Source: a virus. From it: a stretch of DNA of 12,817 nucleotides. The translations under genes and the position numbers were made by a program. Positions 1-12,817 of this stretch are shown piece after piece; within the stretch, counting starts at the first letter, position 1; each line of letters begins with the position of its first letter. The notes beneath the pieces were generated by a model. It did no database searches, was not told where the DNA came from, and worked only from the letters and a program-made list of their open reading frames with translations. The stretch is taken from the UHGV virus genome UHGV-0147886; one strand, written 5' to 3'.

Positions 1-40
1 CCGTAGTTTCATAGTCGAGTTGCAGATCTGCAACTCGCCA
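1..40. repeat. 40-bp direct repeat, copy A; contains a 22-bp perfect palindrome CGAGTTGCAGATCTGCAACTCG (16-37)
   Basis: Positions 1-40 are identical to 435-474 (40/40), with 3 of the next 4 bases also matching. The palindrome is centred on AGATCT and includes GATC. Confidence 0.9.
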
Positions 41-150
41 TCAGTCAGGGAAATTTTGTAATTTCACGGGGGTTAAAATTCGAAGAGGCGGGCACTCCAA
101 GAGATAAGAGACGGTAGGGATTTTGCTACCCCTCCTGAATGCAATTTTTC

Positions 151-323
151 GTATATATATACAAAACAGTGCGGGTTATGCGGGTTAGCGGGTTATCTTC
201 GCGTGCTAAGTATTTTTTATTATTTAATATCAATGCGTTGAAAAATGACATGTTCAAATGTTAGCCAAATCGTAACCCGCAAGTCATTCAAAATAACCCG
301 CAACCTCTCTCAAATAACCCGCA
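151..323. repeat. Iteron cluster 1 (putative origin-like or cis replication region)
   Basis: Alternating GTATATATATAC tract at 151-162. Three tandem direct GCGGGTTA(T/G) units at 171-196. AT-rich spacer 197-272. Three inverted copies (A)TAACCCGCA at 273-281, 293-302 and 314-323 with 21-bp phasing. Same motif and layout as the cluster at 7846-7970. Confidence 0.6.
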
Positions 324-434
324 AACACATCAGGAAAGTGGGGCCAGTGATGCCACCGATCCCCTTTATTTGGGGATCGCGAGTAAGCCCCAAAATCTGG
401 GTGTTGCTCTTACTACCCAAACTACGGGTAGTTT

Positions 435-474
435 CCGTAGTTTCATAGTCGAGTTGCAGATCTGCAACTCGCCA
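435..474. repeat. 40-bp direct repeat, copy B; 22-bp perfect palindrome at 450-471
   Basis: Identical to 1-40. Lies 45 bp downstream (minus-strand sense) of the stop of the last head-module ORF and next to a 7-bp-stem hairpin at 484-501. Confidence 0.9.
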
Positions 475-518
475 CCAGTTGCTAAGTGCATTTTTGCACT
501 TTCGGTAATATCAACCAG

Positions 519-809
519 TTACCGCCGTAAGTGCTCCGGCTTCCTCCACTGGTAAGTATTTTTCGCGCTCTCCCTCCGTTGTTGAGAACGGCGACGGTAT
601 GCCAGCAACTCAAGAACTCTGGTTCGTATGTTGCGCATATCCACGCCGTTAAGCTCAATACCGTCACGGCGCATTACCTCAGCCACCACACGCGCGTAAT
701 TTTCGGCTATCACGCTGTCCGGCTGTGTAGCCTGTTCGTCAGGCTGACGACTGATTCCGGTAATGCGGCGAATTATTTTTAGTAGATCAGTTTCAGTCAT
801 TCTCGTCAT
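519..809 (-). CDS. Hypothetical 96-aa protein, translationally coupled to terL
   Basis: ATG at 809-807 overlaps the terL stop (ATGA overlap at 806-809). Last ORF of the head/packaging operon. No recognisable motif. Confidence 0.6.
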   Translation of the reverse strand: MTRMTETDLLKIIRRITGISRQPDEQATQPDSVIAENYARVVAEVMRRDGIELNGVDMRNIRTRVLELLAYRRRSQQRRESAKNTYQWRKPEHLRR

Positions 810-2455
810 ACCCCATCAAATGCCGCAAGTCGCTCTTTCTGGCTGTCGCTCATATCAAATGCAAATTCCTCATGCTCAGCCTGGAATGTGCCAAACGCCA
901 TCAGCGCCGCAACGCTCGGGTCTATCTTATTGGATGATTTTTTCTTGTTCGGCTTGATATTGGCGTTCGCGTCACTCTGCATCACAACATTACTCATTGA
1001 CCAGGCCAGCACCGGATCACCACGATGAACAATCACCTTCCGGTTAACAAAAACTTCGAACGATTTCGCCGCCGGACTAAAACGAAGGTACGTTTGCGGG
1101 AACGGCTCCACCTCAAATCCCGCTCCCTGTAGCTGCGTCCTCAGGTGCGTGGCGTTCCATGTATCGAAACCCACCAGCCTGATATTGAAATTCTCTGCAT
1201 CCGCCATGATGTCATCACGGATACGGTCATAATCAATGCAGTCACCCGGTGTTGTGCGTATCCAGCCCGCCTTTACCCACTGGCGATAGATGGCGCGGTT
1301 TTTATTGGCGGGGTTCTGTAGCTGAAATTCCGGTAGATAGTGACGTGAAACCAGCATAATCTTTTTACCGACCGGGAAGGCATAGCACACGCTGGAAATA
1401 TCGCTGGTTGATGATAAGTCCAGCCCCGCATAGCACTCCTGCCCGTATAAATCCGCCTCAGCGAACGTTCCGGCGCACTCCGCCCATGCACCGTTACCCA
1501 TCCACGGCGTAGCCCCCTGACACCAGATATTGAATCGCTTGGTGAGCATTTCCACCCACTGCGACGGAATACCCCGCGCTTTCTGGATGGTTGAGGCCAG
1601 TTTTTCACGATCGATATTGGGATTCGCCTTTATCCACATCGCCGGATCGTCAACCTCGCTTTCATCATCCAGCTCGTAAATCAGTACGAACATGGATTCG
1701 TTCACCTCTTCACCATCCAGTATCTGGCAGCAATAGTCGTAGTGTTGTTTACAGGCTGAAACAACGTTGCTCCCCGATGTGGTGATGGCAAATAACAGCC
1801 CCTCCGGACGCGCCCCCATCCCCAGTTCAAGTGCGGAATAAACCCCGTTGTCTGGGTGCAGGTGATATTCATCCACAATGGCAAGACTCGGGTTTGTCCC
1901 CTCAATGGTTGCCGCTTTTGCTGCCAGTGGCTTTAACAGGCTGTTGGTTTTCGGGTGTATCACCTTGTGCGCCTGAATATTTACCCGCTTTCGTAACGGT
2001 CGGGATAAAAGGCACATCTGACGCGCATCATCAAACACGATCCGCGCCTGATCACGACTCACGGCGGCGGTGTAAATATCCTGCTGCCCGTTTTCCATAA
2101 CCAGAAACCAGTTAGCCAGGATAGCGGCGACCGTGGATTTGGCATTTTTTCGCGGTACTTCAATGAATGCGCTGGTGTATTTGCGCCGTCCGGTGGCCTT
2201 AACCTTAAATCCCAGGATGCAGGCAAAGGCGAACTGCTGCCACGGCTCAAGTTCAATGGGGCTACCGCGCATTGCGCCTTTTACGTGCGGGCACACCCGG
2301 GAAAAGGCAATAAACCGCTCCACGACCTCCGGATCGAACGTGTAAAGGGAGTTTTCAAGGTCAGAAAAATACCGTTTAACAGCCTGTTTCAGTCGTTTAC
2401 AGGCCGTAATTTTGCCGTTTTTTACGCCTTCTGCGTACTCATGCCAGGCGGTCAA
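806..2455 (-). CDS. terL: Phage terminase large subunit (TerL)
   Basis: 549-aa ORF with Walker A-like VPRKNAKST and Walker B-like LAIVDEYH in the N-terminal half and a C-terminal nuclease-like region. Directly downstream of terS with 17-nt overlap. First codon at 2455 is TTG, preceded by AGAGGA; no in-frame ATG nearby, so the exact start is uncertain. Confidence 0.9.
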   Translation of the reverse strand: MTAWHEYAEGVKNGKITACKRLKQAVKRYFSDLENSLYTFDPEVVERFIAFSRVCPHVKGAMRGSPIELEPWQQFAFACILGFKVKATGRRKYTSAFIEVPRKNAKSTVAAILANWFLVMENGQQDIYTAAVSRDQARIVFDDARQMCLLSRPLRKRVNIQAHKVIHPKTNSLLKPLAAKAATIEGTNPSLAIVDEYHLHPDNGVYSALELGMGARPEGLLFAITTSGSNVVSACKQHYDYCCQILDGEEVNESMFVLIYELDDESEVDDPAMWIKANPNIDREKLASTIQKARGIPSQWVEMLTKRFNIWCQGATPWMGNGAWAECAGTFAEADLYGQECYAGLDLSSTSDISSVCYAFPVGKKIMLVSRHYLPEFQLQNPANKNRAIYRQWVKAGWIRTTPGDCIDYDRIRDDIMADAENFNIRLVGFDTWNATHLRTQLQGAGFEVEPFPQTYLRFSPAAKSFEVFVNRKVIVHRGDPVLAWSMSNVVMQSDANANIKPNKKKSSNKIDPSVAALMAFGTFQAEHEEFAFDMSDSQKERLAAFDGV

Positions 2456-2795
2456 GTTCGTCCTCTTCCTCTGTTTCCGGTGGATTTCTGCGACGGCTTA
2501 CCGGGTCAAAACCCAGCAAAGAAGCCATTTTGATCATTATTCTTTCTGCGTCAGCCTTTGCGCTCAGTGCGGGGTTTCTGCTCTCGCTGCCCTGACTGTT
2601 AACAATGCTGAACCCGCGCGTCGCAAGGTCTTCGACGGCTTTGCGGTATATAGAGTAGTTAACGCAATACAGTTCCAGATTGCTCCAGTCGGCGGGGGTA
2701 AGGTCTTCCCGCCCGGAAAGCTGGCGCGATTTTTCCTTCCACTGCCTGACCGCGATTTCATCCAGGTAAGCGGGGGCTTTTGGTGGTCTTGCCAT
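2439..2795 (-). CDS. terS: Phage terminase small subunit, P27-family-like
   Basis: 119 aa from ATG 2795-2793 (MARPPKAPAYLDE...). Size and sequence pattern match P27-family TerS and it sits immediately 5' of terL. The longer ORF to 2936 is read-through of the G-rich intergenic region and is rejected. Confidence 0.8.
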   Translation of the reverse strand: MARPPKAPAYLDEIAVRQWKEKSRQLSGREDLTPADWSNLELYCVNYSIYRKAVEDLATRGFSIVNSQGSESRNPALSAKADAERIMIKMASLLGFDPVSRRRNPPETEEEDELDRLA

Positions 2796-2811
2796 GTTCT
2801 TTTTTCGCCCA

Positions 2812-2840
2812 ATTATTTTCAAAAAAATTACCGTGCACAA
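2812..2840 (-). promoter_or_regulatory. Candidate sigma70-like promoter for terS-terL
   Basis: Minus strand reads TTGTGC (2840-2835), a 17-nt spacer, then AATAAT (2817-2812), about 20 nt upstream of the terS ATG. Hexamers read by eye, not scored. Confidence 0.35.
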
Positions 2841-2846
2841 AAATTT

Positions 2847-2906
2847 GAGGGGGCGGTCGGTGTCCGGCAGGGACGGTTTCGTCCTGAAAACCACCCCCAC
2901 CCCCTC
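2847..2906. other. Nested G/C-tract inverted repeat in the HNH-terS gap: candidate cos/packaging site or intrinsic terminator
   Basis: GAGGGGG (2847-2853) and CCCCCTC (2900-2906) are reverse complements and bracket an inner hairpin (2868-2886, loop GTTT). On the minus strand the structure is followed by AAATTTTT and further T runs. Confidence 0.35.
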
Positions 2907-3083
2907 TGACGGCCTCACCAGCGATTGCGAAAACATTCCATGACCTCGCGGTCACGGTCGGTTAATCGCTTCGCTGTGGTGCGTTTTGTGCGCCCTGTCC
3001 TGTTGGCTTTGTGCTCTGTCTCCTGTGTCTTCCATGTGTCACGCTGCCTTATCAGTCCACGTATCAGCCTGGTTTGCTCCTGT

Positions 3084-3524
3084 TCAGTCATCATCGCCAT
3101 ACATCCAGTCGTTACGGTGTGCCGCCCGTTCTTCCTGCTCGCGATACATGCCCGCTTTACGGTTTGTTTTCGTGGCTGGATCTTCCCGTGTCGTCTTACG
3201 GTTGTGGCACGTCTGGCACAATGCCTGGTGATTCCACTCAGGCCAGAAGAGAACATCACCGCCGCCATTGATGGGAATGATGTGATCCACCACAAGAGCT
3301 GGCGTATAAATCCCCTTAGCCAGACAACGCACGCATAACGGGTTTTTGCTCAGGTACAGGGCGCGGTATTTGTCCCACTGTCGGGAATACCCGCGCGCGC
3401 GGCGGTGTCCCCGTCTGGCATCCTCTGCACGCCATGCAGCCCGCCTGTGCTCTTCACACTTGCCGGACTTCACGCGCTTATTACAGCCAGGCTCAGTGCA
3501 TCGCCTTAATGGTTGCCACGGCAT
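3084..3524 (-). CDS. HNH endonuclease (phage packaging-associated)
   Basis: 146 aa. N-terminal Cys cluster CTEPGCNKRVKSGKCEEH and HNH core ...VVDHIIPINGGGD...WNHQALCQTCHNRK. Start ATG shares one base with the connector stop (TGATG). Sits next to terS, as is typical for HK97-like cos-type packaging modules. Confidence 0.85.
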   Translation of the reverse strand: MPWQPLRRCTEPGCNKRVKSGKCEEHRRAAWRAEDARRGHRRARGYSRQWDKYRALYLSKNPLCVRCLAKGIYTPALVVDHIIPINGGGDVLFWPEWNHQALCQTCHNRKTTREDPATKTNRKAGMYREQEERAAHRNDWMYGDDD

Positions 3525-3826
3525 CAGTACACCCCTACGTCACGATAAACTGACCAGAGCGCAGAAATAGCCATAGGCAGTTCCGAGTGCTCCACTGGTG
3601 AAACCGCTTCCCGGTTCTCGTACAGGAAAGCGATGTACATCAGGCAACCAACACGCATTGCCGGGGTAAATTCCAGCCCGTCTTCAAAACGTTTCCCGAT
3701 ATGCTTCTGGCAGGCTTCCAGCGCCGCATCGGTATACATTTTCAGAAGTTCGCCTTCACCGGATAAATCATCATCAAGTCGAAGATGTGCCCTGACTTCA
3801 TCAGGTGTAATTCTGGCTTCACTCAT
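3524..3826 (-). CDS. gp6-like head-tail connector/adaptor protein
   Basis: 100 aa from ATG 3826-3824 with RBS AGGGAG 5 nt upstream. N-terminus ...ITPDEVRAHLRLDDDLSGEGELL... matches the characteristic start of gp6-like head-tail connector proteins. Overlaps the portal stop by 8 nt. Confidence 0.7.
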   Translation of the reverse strand: MSEARITPDEVRAHLRLDDDLSGEGELLKMYTDAALEACQKHIGKRFEDGLEFTPAMRVGCLMYIAFLYENREAVSPVEHSELPMAISALWSVYRDVGVY

Positions 3827-5033
3827 CTTTTCTCCCTTTAATTTCCACAGTCTGTTTCCATGCCTGGCTGAACTCATCACCACCTTCACGCGGCGGCATA
3901 CCCTCACGCTCACGGGCTTCGTTCGGATTCATGATCCCGTTCTTAATCCCTTTCTCATACGTGGCATAACGTTCGGTGGGTGTGGCGCGTAATAAATCGG
4001 CTGAATCAAACTCAACCAGATAACGGGTACCAGGTACGGGAGAAGCCACCAGCAAAGCGGCCTTGATTTGCTGTTCGAAGTTCGCCAGCCACGGGCGCAT
4101 TGTCATGGTCAGAAACGCGCGGCTTGCCTCGCTGAAATTGCTGTAGGTGCTGTTGCTGTATTCCTGCAGAAAAATAGGCGATACGTTGAACATGCGGGCG
4201 ATGTCTTCAATGGAGAAGCGACGGGAGGCCAGCCATTCCGCATCCTGGTTACTCATTCCCAGTTGCCTGTAATCCATGCCCCCTTCAAGGATTGGCGTTT
4301 TTCCGGCATTTTTCGCCCCCTTGTAGCGTTCCAGAGCATCCAATGCCTGTTTACCTTTCACGCCGTCCAGCCATTCGCCTGACGTGATAATCCCTGCCGC
4401 CATCATGCCATCTTTCATAATGCTGGCTCCGTGACGCTGTTGAGCAAGGCCAAGCCCCAGCGCCTCACGGCAAATCGTGACGGGGGAACGCCCCAGAAAG
4501 CCATCATCCGAGGCATAGCGGAGATGCAAAACTTCTTCCTGTAAATACGTGCGCACCGTTCCTGTACAGGGTTCGGTGATGGTATAGCGGTATTTGTGTG
4601 CGCCTGTGCGTTCCGGTACAACACACCCCGGCGCATAAGGATGAAGTGATTTTGGCTGCCCGTCCTGCCCCCACTCAATAACCGCATAGGCGTTACCGTT
4701 CAGCAGGCAGTGACGCATCATTGTGCGTTTAAACTGGTAAGGTGTCTGGCACGAATTAGGCTGCTCATTCAGCAGAATATCTACCGGGTGACTGTCCAGC
4801 CATTCCCGCGCCTCCCTGCCCTTGTCATTACGTACCAGATACAGATAACACGGCATCGTGGCCACCGCCTCAGCGATGACAGAAACCGCATTCATCACTG
4901 CAGGCAATGATTCAGCCGTCCCGGCAGAAACATATTCTCCGGATCCGGTATTCGGTACGCCGGACAGCGCCAGAAAATCATCAATGGACAGGTTACGCTG
5001 CTCGCTTTTTTTACGACTAAAAGGCCACCACAT
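3819..5033 (-). CDS. Phage portal protein, HK97 family-like
   Basis: About 404 aa from ATG 5033-5031, which lies 1 nt after the protease stop (TGATATG). Size and sequence pattern, including a conserved C-terminal region (...FSIEDIARMFNVSPIFL...NPNEAREREGMPP...), fit HK97-type portals. The upstream extension to 5123 starts at TTG with no usable RBS. Confidence 0.85.
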   Translation of the reverse strand: MWWPFSRKKSEQRNLSIDDFLALSGVPNTGSGEYVSAGTAESLPAVMNAVSVIAEAVATMPCYLYLVRNDKGREAREWLDSHPVDILLNEQPNSCQTPYQFKRTMMRHCLLNGNAYAVIEWGQDGQPKSLHPYAPGCVVPERTGAHKYRYTITEPCTGTVRTYLQEEVLHLRYASDDGFLGRSPVTICREALGLGLAQQRHGASIMKDGMMAAGIITSGEWLDGVKGKQALDALERYKGAKNAGKTPILEGGMDYRQLGMSNQDAEWLASRRFSIEDIARMFNVSPIFLQEYSNSTYSNFSEASRAFLTMTMRPWLANFEQQIKAALLVASPVPGTRYLVEFDSADLLRATPTERYATYEKGIKNGIMNPNEAREREGMPPREGGDEFSQAWKQTVEIKGRKDE

Positions 5034-5034
5034 A

Positions 5035-5595
5035 TCACAACCCCGCCAGCTCAGACCAGCGATGACGATTATTTCCTGTCGGACGTAATTCAGGGTGCTG
5101 TGCAAACAACGAACGGTGGGCAATCTCCACGCCAGATTCTGGATAAGCAGGCATCGACGTTATTGTGATTTCACGGAGTTCAGCGGCGGTTACGGTACGC
5201 AGATACGGTTTTTGCGCGATACTCCACTCCTCGCATAATGCGCGAAAACCAAAGCTCATTCCTGTAATGTCGCCACGCTCCACCAGCGTAAGCACATCTT
5301 TTCCAAGCTGGGTATCCGGCGGTGTCAGTTCAAAACGTAACCCGGTGTTATCCTCAGTCAGTACCAGAGTGCCGGATTTGGTGCGCCCCAGCAGTTGGGT
5401 ATAGTCATGCTCATACAGGCAGCGCACATCATTACCCGTCGCCAGATAGTCAGCAAAAGCCCCCGGCGTGAACTGTTCGCGGAATTCGTCCCAGATAATT
5501 TCTGAAAGGCTGTTCCAGCGAACGGCATACCCCACCAGCTTTTTATTGCTGGCGGTCAGTTCAGATGTGCGGATTTCAAAATCGGTGTTTTTCAT
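5035..5595 (-). CDS. HK97-family prohead protease
   Basis: 186 aa with the prohead-protease pattern (...GYAVRWN...FTPGAF...CLYEHD...LGRT...GDITGMSFGF). ATG 5595-5593 with GGAG 7 nt upstream. Confidence 0.85.
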   Translation of the reverse strand: MKNTDFEIRTSELTASNKKLVGYAVRWNSLSEIIWDEFREQFTPGAFADYLATGNDVRCLYEHDYTQLLGRTKSGTLVLTEDNTGLRFELTPPDTQLGKDVLTLVERGDITGMSFGFRALCEEWSIAQKPYLRTVTAAELREITITSMPAYPESGVEIAHRSLFAQHPELRPTGNNRHRWSELAGL

Positions 5596-5606
5596 CGGTG
5601 TACTCC

Positions 5607-5637
5607 ATAAAGCTGAAAAAGGAGGCCGCAGCCTCCT
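5607..5637 (-). terminator. Intrinsic terminator-like hairpin between major capsid and protease genes
   Basis: On the minus strand, AGGAGGC-TGCG-GCCTCCT (7-bp GC-rich stem, 5620-5637) is followed directly by TTTTTCAGCTTT. Confidence 0.55.
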
Positions 5638-5649
5638 CCTTACTCATGA

Positions 5650-6819
5650 CTAGCCAGCTTTCATTTCCAGAATTTTGATGGCGTTTGAATCCACCACACC
5701 ACCGCCCAGATATTTATCCGTGTGGACCTTGTAGAATCCGGGTTCAGTAATGTTGTCCGGTCGGGTGCGAATCCCTGTTACATGATCAACGATGAAATAA
5801 CCACGACTGAAATCGCCAACCGCCAGCGGTGCTTTTCCTGCGCCGATGTCCGGCATGGACTCCAGGCAGTAAACAGGACGACCAAGCAACATATCCGGCG
5901 CACCGTCTTTAAGGCTGTCGCGCCAGATATAATCGCCGTTCTCATTTTTCAGCTTCTGTAGTGTCCCTGCCGTACCCGAGTTCATCACCCAGACGGCATT
6001 TTTGCGGTATTTCGCTTTCAGCTTGTAGAGAATGTCGATCAGTTCGTCCGCTGTAATGGCGGTTCCACTTGCCGCTACCATTTTTTCAATGGTGCCAAAA
6101 GCGCGGGTTTTGTCACTGGTCGCCGCACGGGTGTAAGCCATGAAGCCTTTCGGCTTGCCGTTACCGTCGCCATTAACAAAATCATCCTCTTCGGTGCTGG
6201 CGAACGTGTCGGCAATTTCGGAGGATAACCAGCCCAGAATATCCACCTCTGAAAAATCAAGGATTTCCTGCGTGGTTTTCGGGTAGGCGTAGATCGGATT
6301 CAGCTTGATGGTTACGCGTTCAATTTTCGGGGTGTTGGTTTCACTGCGTGCGCTGCCTTCTGTGCCTCGTCCTACAGTTGCGCCGCCAGTGGAAACCAGT
6401 TTCTGAAACTCATTTGATTTTGCAGTCTTCACGGTCGCGATCACGCGCATAACACTGTCATCCTGTAGCTGGCGCATGACTTCGCGATCGAGCTCAGGAA
6501 TTACGGTATATCCGCCATCCCTGCCGCTGTCAGTGCTGGTGGACAGTGATCGCACATCTCCGGTTACGATGTAGTTACGCAATTCATCAGATGATAATTT
6601 CTGGATGCCCGTTCCTGGCTTGCTGCGTTCTTCATCAGCCACAGACTCGAGGCGGGAAATTTCTGTGTCGAGGGAGTCGGCTTTTGCACGCAGTTCATCA
6701 AACTGTTTGCCCTCGTCATCGTTCAGGCTGCGGTTTTCACTGTCGGCTTTTTCCAGCAGGGATCGCATCTGGTTTTTCAGGGCGGTTTTTTGCTGGCGGA
6801 GTTCGATTAATTTCTTCAT
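5650..6819 (-). CDS. Major capsid protein, HK97 fold, with N-terminal scaffold/delta-like coiled-coil region
   Basis: 389 aa. The first ~100 aa are charged and coiled-coil-like (MKKLIELRQQKTALKNQMRSLLEKADSENRSL...), followed by an MCP-like body (...NGDGNGKPKGF...). First gene of the head operon, after a long untranslated leader. Confidence 0.9.
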   Translation of the reverse strand: MKKLIELRQQKTALKNQMRSLLEKADSENRSLNDDEGKQFDELRAKADSLDTEISRLESVADEERSKPGTGIQKLSSDELRNYIVTGDVRSLSTSTDSGRDGGYTVIPELDREVMRQLQDDSVMRVIATVKTAKSNEFQKLVSTGGATVGRGTEGSARSETNTPKIERVTIKLNPIYAYPKTTQEILDFSEVDILGWLSSEIADTFASTEEDDFVNGDGNGKPKGFMAYTRAATSDKTRAFGTIEKMVAASGTAITADELIDILYKLKAKYRKNAVWVMNSGTAGTLQKLKNENGDYIWRDSLKDGAPDMLLGRPVYCLESMPDIGAGKAPLAVGDFSRGYFIVDHVTGIRTRPDNITEPGFYKVHTDKYLGGGVVDSNAIKILEMKAG

Positions 6820-7052
6820 GAAGGTTTTCTCGTATTGGTTAAGATTCAGGACGTGAAACCAACACGGAGGGAGCGCCGCCCGACACTCTCGGCATCTCGC
6901 AGATCAACCCGGCATCGCGCAGGGGGTCAGGCGGCATTGTGGCGGCTCACGTCTGAGTGCCACACGCCAACATATACATAAAAATCAGTATGTAAATATC
7001 AGCCAGAATCACTGAACAGCCAGAAACAACCACGAACAAATAATTTACAAAA

Positions 7053-7084
7053 CCTGAAAAAAAGACCCGGGAAAAATCCGGGCC
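7053..7084 (-). terminator. Rho-independent terminator closing the replication operon
   Basis: On the minus strand, a GGCCCGG/CCGGGTC stem (5-7 bp, GC-only) with loop ATTTTTC is followed by TCTTTTTTT. Lies 10-40 nt downstream of the 82-aa ORF stop. Confidence 0.6.
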
Positions 7085-7093
7085 TTTATCGCT

Positions 7094-7342
7094 TTACTGT
7101 TTCACGGGATCGCGCATTCTGCGCCTTATTTTCCACAAATATTCGATCATCGCTTCCACCTGCTCACGGTTGGTTGCGAAAATTTCCCCGGTCAGTGAGC
7201 TGCGCAGAAAATCATGATGATCCACAACAAATAACGCATCGGAAGAAAGCAGACGGCGATATTTTTTTGCTGTCGTGGTTTCCAGATCATCAATACCATG
7301 AAACTTTTTATGTTGCTGAACTTCTTCAAATGTCACTGGCAT
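7094..7342 (-). CDS. Hypothetical 82-aa protein
   Basis: ATG 7342-7340 with strong RBS AGGGGGA. 17 nt downstream of the ssb stop and followed by the terminator. No recognisable motif. Confidence 0.6.
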   Translation of the reverse strand: MPVTFEEVQQHKKFHGIDDLETTTAKKYRRLLSSDALFVVDHHDFLRSSLTGEIFATNREQVEAMIEYLWKIRRRMRDPVKQ

Positions 7343-7359
7343 GTATCCCCCTGTTATCG

Positions 7360-7782
7360 CTAAAAGGGTATGTTATCCCCGTATGGATCATCATTCCCCG
7401 CCTGTTGCTTAGCCCTATTTAGAGCGTCAGTAGCCTGACCCTGCTGGCCTTTTTTGCCACCAGGTCGCGCCGTTCTGGCACTGATTACGCTGTCTGCGAT
7501 AACCTGCCAGCCCTGCCGCGTTTCCCCGTTCTGGCCTGTCCACTGGCTTACCTGCATGTTACCCGCCACGCTCACCAGCTCGCCTTTGTGGTGTTTTGCC
7601 AGTGCGTCGGCCTGTCTGCCAAACGCCAGGACGGATAACCACATCGTCGCCTGTCCGTCATCTGCCTGATTGCACGGCAGGTGGACCGCCATGCTTGCCA
7701 TAGCCATTTGTGTGCCCTTGCTGGTGGTCTTTAACTGCGGGTCAGCCACCAGCCGCCCGTAAGCTGCTATCTGTGCTGTCAT
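7360..7782 (-). CDS. ssb: Single-stranded DNA-binding protein (SSB)
   Basis: 140 aa. OB-fold SSB pattern (...WLSVLAFGRQADALAKHHKGELVSVAGNMQVSQWTGQNGETRQGWQVIADSV...) and an acidic C-terminal tail ending DDPYGDNIPF, like the conserved bacterial SSB tip ending DIPF. Confidence 0.8.
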   Translation of the reverse strand: MTAQIAAYGRLVADPQLKTTSKGTQMAMASMAVHLPCNQADDGQATMWLSVLAFGRQADALAKHHKGELVSVAGNMQVSQWTGQNGETRQGWQVIADSVISARTARPGGKKGQQGQATDALNRAKQQAGNDDPYGDNIPF

Positions 7783-7845
7783 GCTGTCTGTTCTCCGGTT
7801 TTAACGTTGATAGTTACGCTTGTTTACACCCTTACGGTGAAATTC

Positions 7846-7970
7846 TGCGGGTTATAATCGCACTTTTGCGGGTTATAACTGCCGTTTTGCGGGTTACGTG
7901 CGGGTTATTGATTTCCTTTTTATTCATACAGTTAATTCACTTATACACAGGATAACCCGCATAACCCGCA
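7846..7970. repeat. Iteron cluster 2 (putative origin-like region), immediately 3' of the replication protein gene
   Basis: Four direct TGCGGGTTA(T/C) units at 7846-7855, 7867-7876, 7888-7897 and 7899-7908 (21-, 21-, 11-bp phasing). AT-rich spacer 7909-7951. Two inverted ATAACCCGCA units at 7952-7961 and 7961-7970. Confidence 0.65.
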
Positions 7971-7993
7971 ACTTTTCACCTCACACAGGGGGG

Positions 7994-10117
7994 TTAATCG
8001 TCTGCCTCAGGCTGGAACATCATCACGTAAAAAACATGCTGCTTACCCCCAATTTTGCCGAGCGCCTTTTTCTTGTAACGGCGATCGTTACCCGCTTCCA
8101 GCATTCCGGCAGCACTCAACGCGCGGGCAAAGTGAGACGGATTAAATCCCTGTGCTATCTCACCCTCAAACACATGAGGAAACGTGTAAAAACGGAACTC
8201 ATCATCTTCATTTCTGATACTCCCCTTTCTGTATCCGGCAAGGTCTTTAATCGGTAAATCACGCTCATCACTGTTTGGGTAAGGAAGGTATCGACTGAAC
8301 CCGAACGACGACAAAAACGCCTCAGCCTGTTCAACCATCTGTTTAAATTCCCTGTTACCCGTGCCGAACTCCTTCACCCAGGCATTAAAGTTATGCTGTA
8401 TTGCGTCCCGGCATTCCTGCGCGGCCCAGCCAGTTACATGACCGGAAAGCACAAGCGCAGCCTCCAGTATGGCGAAACGTTCCCCCACGCGGTGGACCTG
8501 CTCGCCGTAGCTCTCCGGTATCAGGTTGTGCCACCGTTCGCGGCATTCCCTTACCGTGTCCTTTGCCTCCTGCTGGTGGTCTGCCAGCCATTTAACCCAC
8601 TCACGACCCGCCGCCCCGTGATTTGCAGTCCAGGCATCCTTTAACGCGTCTGCGTGCGCCTTTCCGGTGCTGTATTCGTGAAATTGCGTGGCTTTCTCCA
8701 TCGGTACGTTAAGCAGACGGACAAGCTGGCCTGCTTTGACTTTTACCCCCTCACTTTTGAGGAATGTCTCAACATCCATTTCTCCGGTGCTGATTGCCAC
8801 CGTGCGCCAGTGTTTGATCTCCCTGTTGCCGCCGTCCTTCGCCCCCTGTAATTTCCCCGAACCGTTAAACAGCGTATAGGCTGACGTGGACACTTCCCGC
8901 GCGTTTCCGGCCTGGCCTATTTCATCCAGGGGTAACAGCCCGTCGTTGTGTGCTTCGGCCTCGTTGGCGATACCTAACGCCGTTCCGTACCAGGTCAGCC
9001 GTTGCGCGTCCGGCTCTCCCCATAAACTTGAAGCGATGTTCTGCGTGGTGGTTTTCCCTGCCGATGACTGTTCGAAAAGATGTACCCCGAAGCCGTCAGC
9101 ACCAACAAGGCCAATCAAAGGTGCTGCCAGTGACGTGGCAACACCCAGCATCATGGACGGATTGCCACCAGCCAGCCGCGCCACGCTGTCGCGCCAGCCC
9201 TCCGCCGTACCCGCAACCGAATAGCCATTAACAGCGGCACTTTTTCCGGTAAACAGGATCGGTTTTTCAGAATCACCAATGATTGAACCGTCCGGCATGA
9301 TGTACGCGCCAAAATGCCAGCCCGTTGTTGTGCTTAACTGCCATTCCTCATGGCTTCCGCTTAACTGCATCCAGTCAGCCAGGATAGCCCTGTATTTGCC
9401 ATTTGTTGTCACATTCAGCCCGTGATCTTTAAGCAACCGCCAGCCGTCACGGTCGCCAATGCCACCACACGGGATCGCCATTGTGATGACTTCATGGTTT
9501 GCTAATTTTTTCCAGCGCATCACGCGGTAATGCTCTTTACCGATCGTCCCCGTTCCCAGTAGTTCAAGCGGAGAACATAACCACGTCTCAGGCCGGATAA
9601 TTTCGCCTGACTGCTTATCCACTTTGGGCGTTACCCAGAAAACACCATCGACGCGACTTTCAACGCGGGGCTTTAATTCATCATCCTGATAGCATGGCTC
9701 TTTTTTCTTTACAGGCAGTTCAACTACCTTTTTCTTTTCCGCCTGCTCTGCCCGTTCACGTTCCAGATATTCGCGCCAGTTCTCCCGTTTCTGGCTGTGC
9801 ATTCCTTCAGGATAATAATCAGCATCCCTGACACCTGCCGCTGCCAGTTTCTGCCCGATGGTATTAACAAGCCCCGGACGCAATAACCCCGCCTGATAGA
9901 GACGCACGCGATAGCGTCCGTCCGGTACGATTTGCAGGTTGTCCAGTTCGGCAAGTTGTTGCTCTCCAAGCCAGACAGGAGGCACGTTATCGCCAGCCAG
10001 TCGCCCGTCCTGTTCCTGCCACTGCTTCGCATGTGCCCACGCATCACTACCCGCAAAAATGATGACTTCCGTCATTTTGTCACGCGGCTGGTGTTTTAAA
10101 TTTGGCGCTTTTTTCAT
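7994..10117 (-). CDS. Replication initiator, P-loop NTPase of the primase-helicase type (SF3/DUF927-like)
   Basis: About 707 aa from ATG 10117-10115 (RBS GGAGAG; ATGA overlap with the upstream ORF; alternative GTG at 10132). Central Walker A ...EQSSAGKTTT... and Walker B ...LLPLDEIG.... Followed directly by the iteron cluster. A primase function for the N-terminal domain is inferred from context only. Confidence 0.75.
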   Translation of the reverse strand: MKKAPNLKHQPRDKMTEVIIFAGSDAWAHAKQWQEQDGRLAGDNVPPVWLGEQQLAELDNLQIVPDGRYRVRLYQAGLLRPGLVNTIGQKLAAAGVRDADYYPEGMHSQKRENWREYLERERAEQAEKKKVVELPVKKKEPCYQDDELKPRVESRVDGVFWVTPKVDKQSGEIIRPETWLCSPLELLGTGTIGKEHYRVMRWKKLANHEVITMAIPCGGIGDRDGWRLLKDHGLNVTTNGKYRAILADWMQLSGSHEEWQLSTTTGWHFGAYIMPDGSIIGDSEKPILFTGKSAAVNGYSVAGTAEGWRDSVARLAGGNPSMMLGVATSLAAPLIGLVGADGFGVHLFEQSSAGKTTTQNIASSLWGEPDAQRLTWYGTALGIANEAEAHNDGLLPLDEIGQAGNAREVSTSAYTLFNGSGKLQGAKDGGNREIKHWRTVAISTGEMDVETFLKSEGVKVKAGQLVRLLNVPMEKATQFHEYSTGKAHADALKDAWTANHGAAGREWVKWLADHQQEAKDTVRECRERWHNLIPESYGEQVHRVGERFAILEAALVLSGHVTGWAAQECRDAIQHNFNAWVKEFGTGNREFKQMVEQAEAFLSSFGFSRYLPYPNSDERDLPIKDLAGYRKGSIRNEDDEFRFYTFPHVFEGEIAQGFNPSHFARALSAAGMLEAGNDRRYKKKALGKIGGKQHVFYVMMFQPEADD

Positions 10118-10413
10118 TTCTGCTCTCTCCACGCGGCAATCATGTTTTTCAGTTCCTGTAGTTTTTTATCCACATCCACACGTGACACATGGTTATTTCT
10201 GGAAAGCGGGATTTCCCGCCGGAATCTGCAAATAAAGATCTCCACGTTCAGCGAACTATGAAATGAATAGCCATCACGAATAAAATAAACACGGTCAAAC
10301 ATCAGTTCTTTTACCGTTACTCTGTTACCGTTCTTATCCAGATAAATAGCGCCGGGGATAATTTTGGGGTGTGCATAACCGCTGGCAGTCAAGCCAGATA
10401 AATATGTTCTCAT
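10114..10413 (-). CDS. Hypothetical 99-aa protein
   Basis: ATG 10413-10411. Stop overlaps the replication protein start (ATGA). Part of a tightly coupled operon. No recognisable motif. Confidence 0.55.
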   Translation of the reverse strand: MRTYLSGLTASGYAHPKIIPGAIYLDKNGNRVTVKELMFDRVYFIRDGYSFHSSLNVEIFICRFRREIPLSRNNHVSRVDVDKKLQELKNMIAAWREQK

Positions 10414-10419
10414 GATTAT

Positions 10420-10740
10420 TTATCCCCGATTTGAATCAGTATTCGCTTTCTTTATGGCATTTAATGCATCTGCGGCATTTTCAATGGTGCACCGTAACGA
10501 AATATCAAACTGCCCAAGCATTGCCAGTAACAAACCGATATTACCCATATCAATGCGCATAGCCTTTTCGTCATATTCCTCATTTTCTGACGCATGCCAC
10601 ATCAGGCTACCAATTGACGCAACAGCCATTGATATATTGTCAGTAGCCCCATCCGCAGCGGAATAAACCTTTTTAGCAATATCATGCTCACAGTTAAAAT
10701 GCGGATTAATCAGGTACTGGTAATTTGACATATCAGGCAT
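10420..10740 (-). CDS. Hypothetical 106-aa protein
   Basis: ATG 10740-10738 with RBS AGGGGG. Overlaps the upstream ORF stop by 8 nt. No recognisable motif. Confidence 0.55.
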   Translation of the reverse strand: MPDMSNYQYLINPHFNCEHDIAKKVYSAADGATDNISMAVASIGSLMWHASENEEYDEKAMRIDMGNIGLLLAMLGQFDISLRCTIENAADALNAIKKANTDSNRG

Positions 10741-10936
10741 GGCACACCCCCTGACGAATACGGGCGGCGAATACCATCACGCAGCCAGCCGGGGATTGCT
10801 GGCGTGCTTCCTGTTCGCTGGTGGCCACGATGTGAATCACGCGCGGTTGTGCGGTGCTCAGGGCGATAAAACGCCAGATGTATTTATTCAGGTTGTGCGA
10901 GTCCCGCCCTTGCGGGTGTATGGTATGATTTCTCAT
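10733..10936 (-). CDS. Hypothetical 67-aa protein, first gene of the replication operon (possibly Icd-like; weak recollection only)
   Basis: ATG 10936-10934 with GAGG 5 nt upstream. The longer ORF to 11026 starts at TTG inside the promoter region. The motif ...WRFIALSTAQPRVIHIVATSEQEARQQ... resembles small Icd-like proteins that sit upstream of primases in enterobacterial islands. Not verified. Confidence 0.45.
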   Translation of the reverse strand: MRNHTIHPQGRDSHNLNKYIWRFIALSTAQPRVIHIVATSEQEARQQSPAGCVMVFAARIRQGVCHA

Positions 10937-11034
10937 AACTGCCTCGATACTCTCGTTATCGTTGGTGGTTAGACGCCCCGTATGTGTTTCCGGCACTGCG
11001 GGGCGTTGCTCTTTGTATTTCAACAATCCTTTCG

Positions 11035-11112
11035 GTGTGTTTCATGTTATGAGCGCATGAAACACACGTCAAGGCTTTTTGTATTTCTTTTTTTGTGTAT
11101 ACTGAAACACAC
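11035..11112. promoter_or_regulatory. Divergent control region: palindromic operator overlapping a sigma70-like promoter for the replication operon
   Basis: Perfect inverted repeat GTGTGTTTCATG (11035-11046), 9-nt spacer, CATGAAACACAC (11056-11067). A third half-site-like ACTGAAACACAC at 11101-11112. Minus-strand -35 TTGACG (11072-11067), 17-nt spacer, -10 TAACAT (11049-11044), so the palindrome covers the spacer and -10. A TATACT hexamer at 11098-11103 may serve the plus-strand gene. Confidence 0.55.
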
Positions 11113-11133
11113 CGATGATTAGGAGTTTCAGAA

Positions 11134-11439
11134 ATGGCAACGGCTAACAAAAACGCAAAATCACAACTGACAACTGTCAGAGTCCCACTAGATGTTATGC
11201 AAGGGATGGAATCCGTTAAGCTGGACGGCGAAAGCAATGCCGGATTTATCGTAACCGCCATGCGCGGAGAAATAGCCCGCCGCCAAGCAGAAGGCAGCGG
11301 AGAAAATCCCCTTGTGTCGTCACTGGATGCCCTGGCTAAGGTCGAACAAATCGGCATCAAAGCAGCGGAAGAAATCGGGCAGCTTGTCACCGTTGCACGC
11401 GAAGAACTCCAGCGTCGCAAGACCAAAGAACCAGAGTAA
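11134..11439 (+). CDS. Putative small DNA-binding regulator (possible ribbon-helix-helix), divergent from the replication operon
   Basis: 101 aa. ATG 11134 with RBS AGGAG 8 nt upstream. N-terminal strand-helix-helix-like segment (...QLTTVRVPLDVMQGMESVKL...GFIVTAMRGEIARRQ...). Regulator role inferred from position next to the operator. Confidence 0.6.
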   Translation: MATANKNAKSQLTTVRVPLDVMQGMESVKLDGESNAGFIVTAMRGEIARRQAEGSGENPLVSSLDALAKVEQIGIKAAEEIGQLVTVAREELQRRKTKEPE

Positions 11440-11496
11440 TCACCATCAGCGCCTTGGTGTAAGGTATTACGGCGCATTGCTATGCAGGACAACACA

Positions 11497-11670
11497 ATGA
11501 CCGATAAAGAATTGACCAAAACATTATCACCGGCACGGAAAAGACGGCGCAGAAAGATAGAGCATGAATCAGAAAGATTCGCGCCATGTGCTTTTGCTCT
11601 TGAGAAATTCCTTAAAGAGCACAGGAAAAAGCTCTCGTTGCAAACCTTGGAACGAACCGAATCTGACTGA
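11497..11670 (+). CDS. Hypothetical small basic protein (57 aa)
   Basis: ATG 11497 with AGGA 7 nt upstream (alternative ATG at 11482). Highly basic stretch ARKRRRRK. Followed by a strong terminator. Coding status uncertain. Confidence 0.35.
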   Translation: MTDKELTKTLSPARKRRRRKIEHESERFAPCAFALEKFLKEHRKKLSLQTLERTESD

Positions 11671-11734
11671 TCAAATTGCCCACCAGCCAGCAAATCGCTA
11701 TGATGTTCGAGCTTATGTTTAGTGTTTTCCCATT

Positions 11735-11763
11735 GGCGACCGCCCCCGGTCGCCTTTGTTTTA
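11735..11763 (+). terminator. Rho-independent terminator for the plus-strand unit
   Basis: GGCGACCG-CCCC-CGGTCGCC (8-bp stem, 4-nt loop, 11735-11754) followed by TTTGTTTTAT. On the minus strand the hairpin has no T tract after it. Confidence 0.7.
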
Positions 11764-12444
11764 TGCGCGATCATGTGCCGCCTCCCACTCATATTTATCG
11801 AAATCAATCTGCCCCATCGCATCTACCAGCCGTACCGCCGGACGCAGAACTTTGAGTTCCTTCTTGCGGATATTCATTCCATTACTGCCCTGTGAGCCAT
11901 GAAACTGCTTAGAATGCTTGTCCGCACGAGTCACGGCGTTTTGCGCATCAGTAACCGGCATGGCGATCAGTTCTTCGAGCGACGGCAGATCCACATGATG
12001 GAAAGTGACAAACTCCGGGCAACGGAAATAAGTTTTCACGAGCTGGCGCTGTACCTGCCAGGCCAAATCATCGTTAAACGGTTTGGTCAGCAGCAGATAG
12101 CCTGATTCCGTAATCAGTGTTACGCGGCCACGTATCGGACTGTTCATTTTTTTGCCAGGGCGTTTAATGCCCCTGTCTAAATATCCAGCCCCTCCCCATT
12201 CGACCTCTGACGCGCCGACAATAAAAAAGTCCTCACCATCAATGAAGCGAGTGCGATTACGCTGAAAAGTCTTTTTAGCCGTGTCTTTAGGTCGCTGGTG
12301 CGCGGTATCAATCATTGCGAACGTCACCACGCGTTGCCCGTGAAATTCGACGGCAGGAAGCTGTTTAAGCTGCACGCTAATATCGCTTTTACTGGCAACA
12401 GGGTGAGCGAATCCCTGCCCGTTAAGGGCATTAATATTTTTCAT
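11761..12444 (-). CDS. ORF6N-domain (KilA-N-like) phage regulatory protein
   Basis: 227 aa. N-terminal region ...GQRVVTFAMIDTAHQRPKDTAKKTFQRNRTRFIDGEDFF...LITESGYLLLTKPFNDDLAWQVQRQLVKTYF matches the ORF6N pattern (RG..VMLD.DLA..Y...TK.LN.AVKRN..RFPEDFMF...AFTE.GV.ML...). ATG 12444-12442. Confidence 0.65.
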   Translation of the reverse strand: MKNINALNGQGFAHPVASKSDISVQLKQLPAVEFHGQRVVTFAMIDTAHQRPKDTAKKTFQRNRTRFIDGEDFFIVGASEVEWGGAGYLDRGIKRPGKKMNSPIRGRVTLITESGYLLLTKPFNDDLAWQVQRQLVKTYFRCPEFVTFHHVDLPSLEELIAMPVTDAQNAVTRADKHSKQFHGSQGSNGMNIRKKELKVLRPAVRLVDAMGQIDFDKYEWEAAHDRA

Positions 12445-12464
12445 CTCTGATTACCTGTGGTTAA

Positions 12465-12749
12465 TTAAGCAGATTTGCGGCTGTACGGGTTATTGACGTT
12501 TTCCACGGCAGGCGGATTACGAACCCACCAGAGCACATCCGAAAGAAGCCAGGCACAGCTGTTGCGGCCAAAGTGACAGCGCGGCGGGAAGCGCCCCTGC
12601 TGTTCCATCTTCCAGCGGCTCGAACGAGAAAGACTGGTGATCTCGCTGCATTCATCTTCGCGGATTCGGCGATCGAACTTGAAGCCGTACTCCTCCAGAA
12701 TGGTGCGGCGTTGTTCAGGATTTGGCGGGGTAAAGGTGATAATTTGCAT
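12465..12749 (-). CDS. alpA: AlpA-family phage transcriptional regulator
   Basis: 94 aa from ATG 12749-12747 with RBS GGAGG. Motif ...ITSLSRSSRWKMEQQGRFPPRCHFGRNSCAWLLSDVLWWV... fits the AlpA helix-turn-helix pattern (S-R-[AS]-[ST]-x-[YW] ... FP ... G..S.AW...[DE]...W). The extension to 12809 is rejected. Confidence 0.75.
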   Translation of the reverse strand: MQIITFTPPNPEQRRTILEEYGFKFDRRIREDECSEITSLSRSSRWKMEQQGRFPPRCHFGRNSCAWLLSDVLWWVRNPPAVENVNNPYSRKSA

Positions 12750-12817
12750 GTTGCCTCCACTGTTTCTAAGTTTGTGGGGGCTATTGTTATCCTTGTGATT
12801 GGATGTCACACTAGACG

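Follow-up and report, generated by a model that had tools for sequence, protein, structure and literature searches.

A probable capsid-forming phage satellite of the EcCIEDL933 type in UHGV-0147886, with a split origin and no head-closure gene

Phage-inducible chromosomal islands that form capsids (cf-PICIs), first described in 2022–23, are among the most abundant phage satellites of enterobacteria, and their tail piracy moves DNA between species. The prototype is EcCIEDL933, a 15.4-kb element of E. coli O157:H7 EDL933 (Alqurainy et al., 10.1101/2022.09.08.507074; He et al., 10.1101/2025.02.11.637232), which lies between roxA and phoQ in the EDL933 chromosome. It combines PICI-type int, alpA and rep genes with genes for capsid, protease, portal, head-tail connectors, HNH, TerS and TerL, and has no tail genes. 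Mutation of each packaging gene abolished transfer, except for gene 1792 (severe reduction), and left replication unaffected; alpA was required for induction and transfer, and helper tail genes for infectivity (10.1101/2022.09.08.507074). The element forms T=4 capsids of 47.5 nm, and the tail-less, DNA-filled heads that are released join tails of different phages (10.1101/2025.02.11.637232). Induction by a helper, small capsids containing island DNA only and the need for helper tails have been demonstrated for EcCIEDL933, KpCIDSM30104 and EcCIGN02175 (10.1101/2022.09.08.507074; 10.1101/2025.02.11.637232). The SatelliteFinder catalogue holds 969 cfPICI elements, from 13% of Enterobacteriaceae genomes (de Sousa et al., NAR 2023, PMC10085698). 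Here we analyse the virus genome UHGV-0147886, a stretch of 12,817 nucleotides (denoted the window), which very probably represents ∼ 12.8 kb out of a ∼ 15.6-kb cf-PICI of the EcCIEDL933 type.

EcCIEDL933 has homologues of 15 of the 18 genes assigned in the window, in the same order and with 32–92% amino acid identity. The common order runs int (outside the window, see below), alpA, a variable gene, Icd-like, DUF4222, DUF927, iterons, SSB (single-stranded DNA-binding protein), capsid, protease and portal, and continues with connector, HNH, a small open reading frame (ORF), P27 TerS, TerL and an ORF of 93–96 aa. Both islands belong to the same size class (15.4–15.6 kb) and carry the same GCGGGTTA iterons. 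The capsid protein aligns over its whole length (residues 1–386, E = 2e-155) with PDB entry 9GYI, named by its authors as the EcCIEDL933 capsid (10.1101/2025.02.11.637232); identity to the EcCIEDL933 capsid protein is 64% (tblastn). Its Phage_capsid domain begins at residue 102, thus residues 1–101 constitute an N-terminal delta or scaffold-like arm, and this arm aligns with the N-terminus that is cleaved from the EcCIEDL933 capsid protein (10.1101/2025.02.11.637232). Collinearity with the prototype and the capsid match argue together that the window is a cf-PICI.

The gene calls were made with curated Pfam cut-offs and were echoed by PHROGs and NCBIfam (Table 1). An earlier reading of the window, made from its letters without database searches (the sequence-only reading), had named a capsid protein with a scaffold-like N-terminus, protease, portal, gp6-like connector, HNH, TerS and TerL; all of these pass the Pfam thresholds, the connector with 23.4 bits against a cut-off of 21.2 (Phage_connect_1, E = 8e-5; TIGR01560, 5e-20). 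Its calls of a replication protein, SSB, AlpA and ORF6N were likewise confirmed by Pfam. The window therefore has the make-up of a cf-PICI: its own capsid, protease and portal, its own HNH, TerS and TerL, a connector of the gp6/Ad1 type, the alpA regulation module seen in Gram-negative elements and, as judged from an iteron cluster directly 3′ of the DUF927 gene, apparently its own replication module. Seventeen of the 18 genes are on the minus strand, and every gene is full length when compared with its homologues.

The window ends inside the element; the integrase, a DUF6387 gene and both attachment (att) ends fall outside it. Borders, size and integrase were read from near-identical copies in E. 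coli chromosomes, which match 97–100% of the window at 96.9–98.4% identity. In strains PEC209, KSC9 and D8 the island is located between the core genes hpt and gcd, with an identical 22-nt att core repeat (AGTGATACACCGAGTGATATAC) at both borders (15,630 nt apart in PEC209). To the left of the window these copies have only non-coding DNA before hpt is reached; to the right, only the DUF6387 gene and a tyrosine integrase precede gcd. In three of the loci compared (L001, L002 and L006) the tyrosine recombinase WP_000929256.1 is encoded two genes past the right end of the window, and no tail or lysis gene lies between the att sites or adjoins the island. The 15.6 kb measured on the near-identical copies falls within the range of discrete cf-PICI islands (about 10–18 kb), and the integrase lies at one end of the island, as in other cf-PICIs. 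Elements at other integration sites, with different integrases, contain the packaging module as well, and this implies that it is mobile.

These borders bear directly on a different explanation, that the window is what remains of a defective prophage: the head and packaging part of an HK97-like prophage whose tail and lysis genes were deleted. The structural genes are indeed homologous to HK97-type phage genes, and many decayed prophages reside in E. coli genomes. However, many genomes contain this tail-less 15.6-kb unit intact, complete with its int and att ends and at differing attachment sites; none of its ORFs is truncated, and it is collinear with a satellite whose function was shown experimentally. 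A search of 50,697 phage records found only 3 with any DNA in common with the window (75–78% identity), and the replication and regulation half (AlpA, DUF927, Icd-like) is of the PICI type, not lambdoid. The tail and lysis modules of a temperate prophage, usually accompanied by a CI-type repressor, are missing from the window and from the whole island of the near-identical copies: no tail, baseplate, holin/endolysin or CI-type repressor gene was found among the 18 assigned genes (Pfam, PHROGs, NCBIfam), as the sequence-only reading had stated. In those copies there are also no contiguous tail and lysis genes that would make the window the head region of an ordinary prophage. We regard the remnant explanation as very improbable and as largely refuted already. 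The identification as a cf-PICI-type satellite was proposed in the sequence-only reading together with three checks (extension of the flanks, profile hidden Markov model searches and comparison of gene order with published satellites), and it has held up in all three.

Several points nevertheless weigh against the identification. All of the evidence comes from sequence; what is said of induction, capsid size, the cos site and dependence on tails is transferred by analogy from the prototype, and that prototype shares only 64% identity in the capsid protein. Integrase and att sites were seen only in copies that are 97–98% identical, not in the window's own flanks, and no helper phage was identified. 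The head-closure gene, one of the eight packaging-module genes that define cf-PICIs, is absent, and head completion may therefore differ from that of the prototype.

In EcCIEDL933 a 112-aa head-closure protein (TIGR01563, SPP1 gp16 type) is encoded between the portal and connector genes. It corresponds to the 'head-tail adaptor' of the cf-PICI papers, which include both adaptor and connector in their search criteria; adaptor and connector jointly set tail compatibility, and all studied cf-PICIs have both genes (10.1101/2025.02.11.637232). A tblastn search of the window with the EcCIEDL933 head-closure protein gave a best E-value of 0.9, and no other ORF of the window matches a head-closure family in Pfam, PHROGs or NCBIfam. 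Indeed, the portal stop codon overlaps the connector start, leaving no room for such a gene. The connector itself is a diverged allele, with 56–57% identity to the connectors of the adaptor-bearing elements EcCIEDL933 and L007, and the differences are mainly in the N-terminal half. The head-closure proteins of cf-PICIs are 52–62% identical to that of an HK97-like prophage in E. coli 042, whereas identity of the connectors is only about 26%.

Loss of the head-closure gene could have made the lineage non-transmissible, so that it persists by vertical inheritance only as a decaying cf-PICI. The presence of adaptor and connector in all studied cf-PICIs, their joint role in tail compatibility and the complete loss of transfer in every EcCIEDL933 packaging-module mutant except gene 1792 are in keeping with such decay. 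Against it stands the distribution of the adaptor-less form. About 143 of the 5,426 complete E. coli genomes (∼ 3%), from varied hosts, contain the portal-connector-HNH junction in contiguous form at ≥ 95% identity, and about 378 contain the version with an inserted head-closure gene. The adaptor-less form also occurs at other integration sites with other integrases. Several IMG/VR contigs have it too, as do Erwinia psidii and one Gilliamella strain; the gene is retained by sister elements of Gilliamella and Frischella. Since the form is widespread and the other packaging genes are all intact, a transmissible variant fits better than a dead one, and we consider decay unlikely.

For a transmissible cf-PICI without a head-closure gene, this neck component must be either dispensable or supplied by the helper. 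We infer that the adaptor-less islands would manage without a stopper or acquire that of the helper together with the tail. A broader proposal, which we put forward tentatively and with some doubt, has two separate parts: the adaptor-less lineage splits the work between itself and its helper in a way unlike that of the studied cf-PICIs, and one of the two iteron clusters, unit B (described below), is a portable second replication site. With labour so divided, the heads may be capped by the diverged gp6-type connector only, and the head-closure (stopper) protein of the helper may be taken up with the tail; compatibility between connector and stopper may then decide which tails are chosen.

Two observations on related islands concern their surroundings and make-up. 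Some cf-PICIs sit inside the terL gene of an HK97-like prophage, which is annotated as two fragments (L010, E. coli 042, NC_017626.1, 15070–32072; L007, NZ_OZ501679.1, 8243–25343). Ten of ∼ 45 close IMG/VR relatives have the same terL neighbourhood, with a head-closure gene of a prophage about 8 kb downstream; excision of the cf-PICI from terL might restore the prophage terminase. In the IMG/VR loci L025–L069, one connector allele (94–100% identical) is paired with two classes of capsid protein, 98–100% or about 69% identical to that of the window, and with several Rep types. The combination of one connector allele with differing capsids and Reps points to free shuffling of modules within the lineage.

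The second peculiarity of the island is its origin. The motif GCGGGTTAT, allowing up to 1 mismatch, occurs 19 times in the window compared with 3.0 ± 1.8 expected occurrences, and 0 of 200 shuffles reached 19. Twelve copies are grouped in two clusters, 7847–7969 (unit A) and 171–322 (unit B), which agrees with the two clusters reported in the sequence-only reading. Unit A is the probable origin of replication. Unit B adjoins a TATATATATA tract at 152–166 and lies in about 500 nt of non-coding DNA past the 96-aa ORF. In the intergenic region after DUF927 of EcCIEDL933, units A and B are found side by side: the first half of this origin region is 93% identical to unit A, and the second half matches unit B in the same orientation with 78% identity. 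Because both units are contiguous in the prototype, unit B of the window appears to have moved 7.6 kb away, beyond terL. Across six elements, 42 of the 48 columns within the iterons of unit B are invariant, versus 70 of 197 columns elsewhere. Int arm-type sites were rejected as an explanation of unit B, since it is ∼ 600 nt from the att core and lies beside the rep gene in EcCIEDL933.

Of the loci with enough flank to be counted, all 20 that have a full DUF927 Rep also have a distal unit B, compared with 8 of the 13 that have other Reps (Fisher p = 0.005, for samples that are mutually related). The most economical explanation would make unit B a functional partner of the DUF927 Rep that lingers for a time as a relic once the Rep cassette has been swapped; use in trans by a co-resident island is a further option. 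A strict pairing of one Rep with one unit B was rejected, because unit B is present in those eight elements with other Reps, one of them a classical PICI with a TGTCTACC origin. Classical, non-capsid PICIs with a distal GCGGGTTA unit B were seen in BH100 (L009, 16063–16293 and 21048–21335) and in FDAARGOS_1298 (L008, 16061–16277). The rep-proximal origin of BH100 is built on different repeats, TGTCTACC, and its unit B thus has no obvious cognate Rep in cis. The sister island of strain D8 (L006, 11688–13807) has kept the first 151 residues of the Rep, while the rest is swapped for a 'DNA primase family' C-terminus. It is 95–100% identical elsewhere, and its origin carries TGTTCACC repeats, which we take to be the P4 iteron. 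The hybrid Rep and the TGTTCACC origin indicate that cassettes were exchanged within rep.

In P4, both ori and a distant cis replication region (crr) are required for replication, and the two contain the same octamer. The sequence-only reading had described the two clusters as a P4-like system; the two sites are real, but their likeness to ori and crr is one of analogy and not of relationship, the arrangement being a rearranged form of the contiguous two-unit origin of EcCIEDL933. A P4-like satellite would account for the AlpA-type regulator, the Icd-like gene, a primase-type Rep and two clusters of one iteron 7.6 kb apart, and for the Rep with a TGTTCACC origin that was swapped into the D8 sister island. 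In contrast to P4, the capsid, portal and terminase are encoded by the island itself, its Rep belongs to a different family (DUF927), and neither the psu-delta-sid capsid-size operon nor epsilon, which mark P4-like elements, has a homologue among the window ORFs in Pfam, PHROGs or NCBIfam. In EcCIEDL933, moreover, the iteron units are adjacent, and SatelliteFinder keeps P4-like and cfPICI elements as distinct clusters (PMC10085698). An assignment to the P4-like satellites is thus scarcely credible.

A 434-bp segment with unit B is bracketed by 121-nt direct repeats, of which the window contains one full and one truncated copy. In L001 the pair is located at 9001–9121 and 9435–9555 (94% identical, 434 nt spacing); D8 has a single copy and lacks the 434-bp segment. 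If unit B is a portable second replication site, it may be gained or lost by recombination between these structured repeats, and it may function like P4 crr, acting at a distance, an idea that we base on analogy. The RNA fold of the repeat has −57.4 kcal/mol (z = −6.5), and among 10 distinct copies there is one compensatory change, in hairpin 1. The repeat has no Rfam match. It was found in 665 of 5,426 E. coli genomes (12%), at a median of one place per genome, which suggests a satellite-associated rather than a dispersed element; an ERIC/REP-type dispersed repeat was rejected on the same grounds.

Table 1. Positions of the features of the window, with the supporting evidence.
Feature	Coordinates	Strand	Evidence
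Truncated copy of 121-nt direct repeat flanking unit B	1..37	.	Window starts inside copy; window 1-39 matches repeat end
Iteron unit B	171..322	.	3 tandem GCGGGTTA copies, 9-nt spacing; AT-rich spacer; 3 inverted copies, 21-nt spacing
Full copy of 121-nt direct repeat, non-coding	349..470	.	Folds into four consecutive hairpins
Conserved 96-aa protein, function unknown, downstream of terL	519..809	-	phrog_1561 E=1e-51; 70% identity to last EcCIEDL933 gene
TerL	806..2455	-	Pfam TerL_nuclease E=3e-49, TerL_ATPase 4e-26; 92% identity to EcCIEDL933 TerL
TerS, P27 family, 118 aa	2439..2795	-	Pfam Terminase_4 E=4e-23; 88% identity to EcCIEDL933 TerS
G-rich intergenic region upstream of terS	2796..2914	-	83% identity over 118 nt to EcCIEDL933 counterpart region
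61-aa protein	2915..3100	-	phrog_3173 E=6e-27; 77% identity to EcCIEDL933 hypothetical gene between HNH and terS
HNH endonuclease, packaging machine	3084..3524	-	Pfam HNH E=9e-10; 84% identity to EcCIEDL933 HNH
Head-tail connector, HK97 gp6 / SPP1 gp15 / Ad1 type	3524..3826	-	Phage_connect_1, TIGR01560, phrog_40 'head-tail adaptor Ad1'
Portal protein	3819..5033	-	Pfam Phage_portal E=3e-92; 81% identity to EcCIEDL933 portal
HK97-type prohead serine protease	5035..5595	-	Pfam Peptidase_S78 E=6e-46; 62% identity to EcCIEDL933
HK97-fold major capsid protein with N-terminal delta domain	5650..6819	-	Pfam Phage_capsid E=6e-71
Conserved 82-aa protein, function unknown	7094..7342	-	phrog_1957 E=8e-37; 43% identity to same-position EcCIEDL933 gene
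SSB	7360..7782	-	Pfam SSB E=5e-17; 71% identity to EcCIEDL933 SSB
Iteron unit A	7847..7969	.	4 direct and 2 inverted GCGGGTTA copies around AT-rich spacer, directly 3′ of DUF927 stop codon
DUF927 replication protein, 712 aa, primase-helicase type, Walker A SSAGKTT	7994..10132	-	Pfam DUF927 E=8e-48
DUF4222 protein	10114..10413	-	Pfam DUF4222 E=5e-17; same position in EcCIEDL933, 32% identity
106-aa protein, function unknown	10420..10740	-	phrog_15327 E=3e-71
Icd-like host cell-division inhibitor homologue	10733..10936	-	NCBIfam NF033153 E=5e-20; 57% identity to EcCIEDL933 counterpart
Divergent control region, nested inverted repeats and sigma-70-like promoter toward replication operon	10983..11115	.	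Sequence
YlcI/YnfO-family protein, sole confirmed + strand gene	11134..11439	+	NF041551 E=2e-17; phrog_6522 E=1e-63
ORF6N-domain antirepressor-like protein, variable slot downstream of alpA	11761..12444	-	Pfam ORF6N E=1e-11
AlpA-family regulator/excisionase	12465..12749	-	Pfam Phage_AlpA E=8e-10; phrog_2790 E=2e-39; 47% identity to EcCIEDL933

The DUF927 protein is 89% identical to its EcCIEDL933 counterpart and has a weak match to the SCCmec Cch1 replicative helicase; its gene likely starts at the ATG at 10117. The sequence-only reading had taken the combination with an SSB for a non-standard layout, but EcCIEDL933 and the related islands inspected have DUF4222, DUF927 and SSB in the same order. 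The 106-aa protein has no counterpart in EcCIEDL933 (no hit in L005). Between the divergent Icd-like and YlcI/YnfO genes, the control region contains a perfect 13-nt inverted pair, TCGGTGTGTTTCA / TGAAACACACCGA, 58 nt apart, and a promoter-like site on the minus strand (11072→11044). From their arrangement, the inverted repeats look like operators around the promoter of the replication operon. Over the whole window promoter-like sites are not above chance (7 found versus 12.8 expected).

The YlcI/YnfO gene is followed on its 3′ side by a 62-aa ORF (11482–11670) and a strong terminator (11735–11754). A 288-aa antisense ORF (10956–11822, minus strand) was rejected as a gene: it has no family match, overlaps the well-supported YlcI/YnfO gene and is probably spurious. 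A homologue of this Ser/Cys/Arg-rich ORF is annotated in EDL933 as a 247-aa 'hypothetical protein' that follows alpA (L005, 17170–17913). Given that the ORF of the window overlaps YlcI/YnfO on the opposite strand, the EDL933 gene was probably called on the wrong strand. The ORF6N protein matches eight PHROG anti-repressor families (best 4e-34), and in related islands the slot after alpA is occupied by BRO-N or AntA/AntB proteins. We speculate that the antirepressor-like genes of this slot could act on helper repressors.

In the packaging region, a cos site is putatively placed within 2796–2914, on the basis of position and by analogy with HK97-type genome organization. A longer terS ORF that reaches 2936 is unused in RefSeq homologues (RefSeq annotation of L001). 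Counting on from the capsid gene 1786 suggests that the EcCIEDL933 counterpart of the 61-aa protein is gene 1792. ARAGORN found no tRNA in the window, and Rfam gave no match anywhere in it at E ≤ 1. PADLOC detected no defence gene among the ten ORFs tested (nine accessory/replication ORFs and HNH); the island thus seems to be without known immune cargo.

A life cycle can be proposed in which the gene set, the iterons beside rep and the island borders (in the near-identical copies) are read from the DNA, and the remaining steps follow the prototype. A helper phage would switch on alpA; the AlpA protein would then cause the integrase to excise the island and would turn on the replication operon (Icd-like, DUF4222, DUF927 and SSB). 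The DUF927 protein is predicted to bind the GCGGGTTA iterons, both in unit A beside its own gene and in unit B beyond terL, and to replicate the excised circle. The packaging operon would provide the island's capsid protein, protease and portal, from which small proheads of HK97 fold (probably T=4) would be built, the delta domain being removed proteolytically during head assembly. TerS, TerL and HNH would cut and package island DNA, probably at the cos site upstream of terS (2796–2914), and the gp6-type connector would cap the portal. The particle would become infectious only once joined to a siphovirus tail made by the helper.

The window adds no new kind of system, and it illustrates that a reader of sequence without database searches can recognize the family correctly. 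It belongs to a widespread sub-lineage without one of the two genes reported to govern tail specificity, which bears on head closure and on the helpers that can be used, and it has a bipartite replication origin of which the second unit moves within PICI types and from one type to another.

Compared with classical E. coli PICIs (EcCICFT073 type), the island shares the left half, that is int, alpA, Icd-like, DUF4222, Rep and SSB. Classical PICIs, however, rely on the capsids of a helper and have no portal, connector or TerL, three components that SatelliteFinder forbids in PICI (PMC10085698); all three are present in the window. Within the SatelliteFinder cfPICI family, the island has 10 of the 11 core components (with the integrase counted from the near-identical copies) and none of the forbidden tail/holin components. 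Ten of 11 components corresponds to Type B, a match by component count with no named variant assigned; Type B is the commonest cfPICI class (459 of 969 elements; PMC10085698). SatelliteFinder accepts elements without one or two of the 11 core components, and many such variants are conserved and functional (PMC10085698). The adaptor-less island thus still lies within the catalogued family.

Set beside EcCIEDL933 itself, the island differs in attachment site (hpt|gcd versus roxA|phoQ) and in its integrase, and it has neither the head-closure/adaptor gene nor the PerC gene. In the slot after alpA, the window has an ORF6N antirepressor-like gene and the prototype an annotated 247-aa hypothetical gene; the YlcI/YnfO gene on the opposite strand is a further feature in which the window differs, and unit B is 7.6 kb away from unit A, not adjacent to it. 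The element is an ordinary cf-PICI family member, of a kind already described, with two modest peculiarities, the missing adaptor gene and the split origin, and both variants may already be implicit in the published catalogues.

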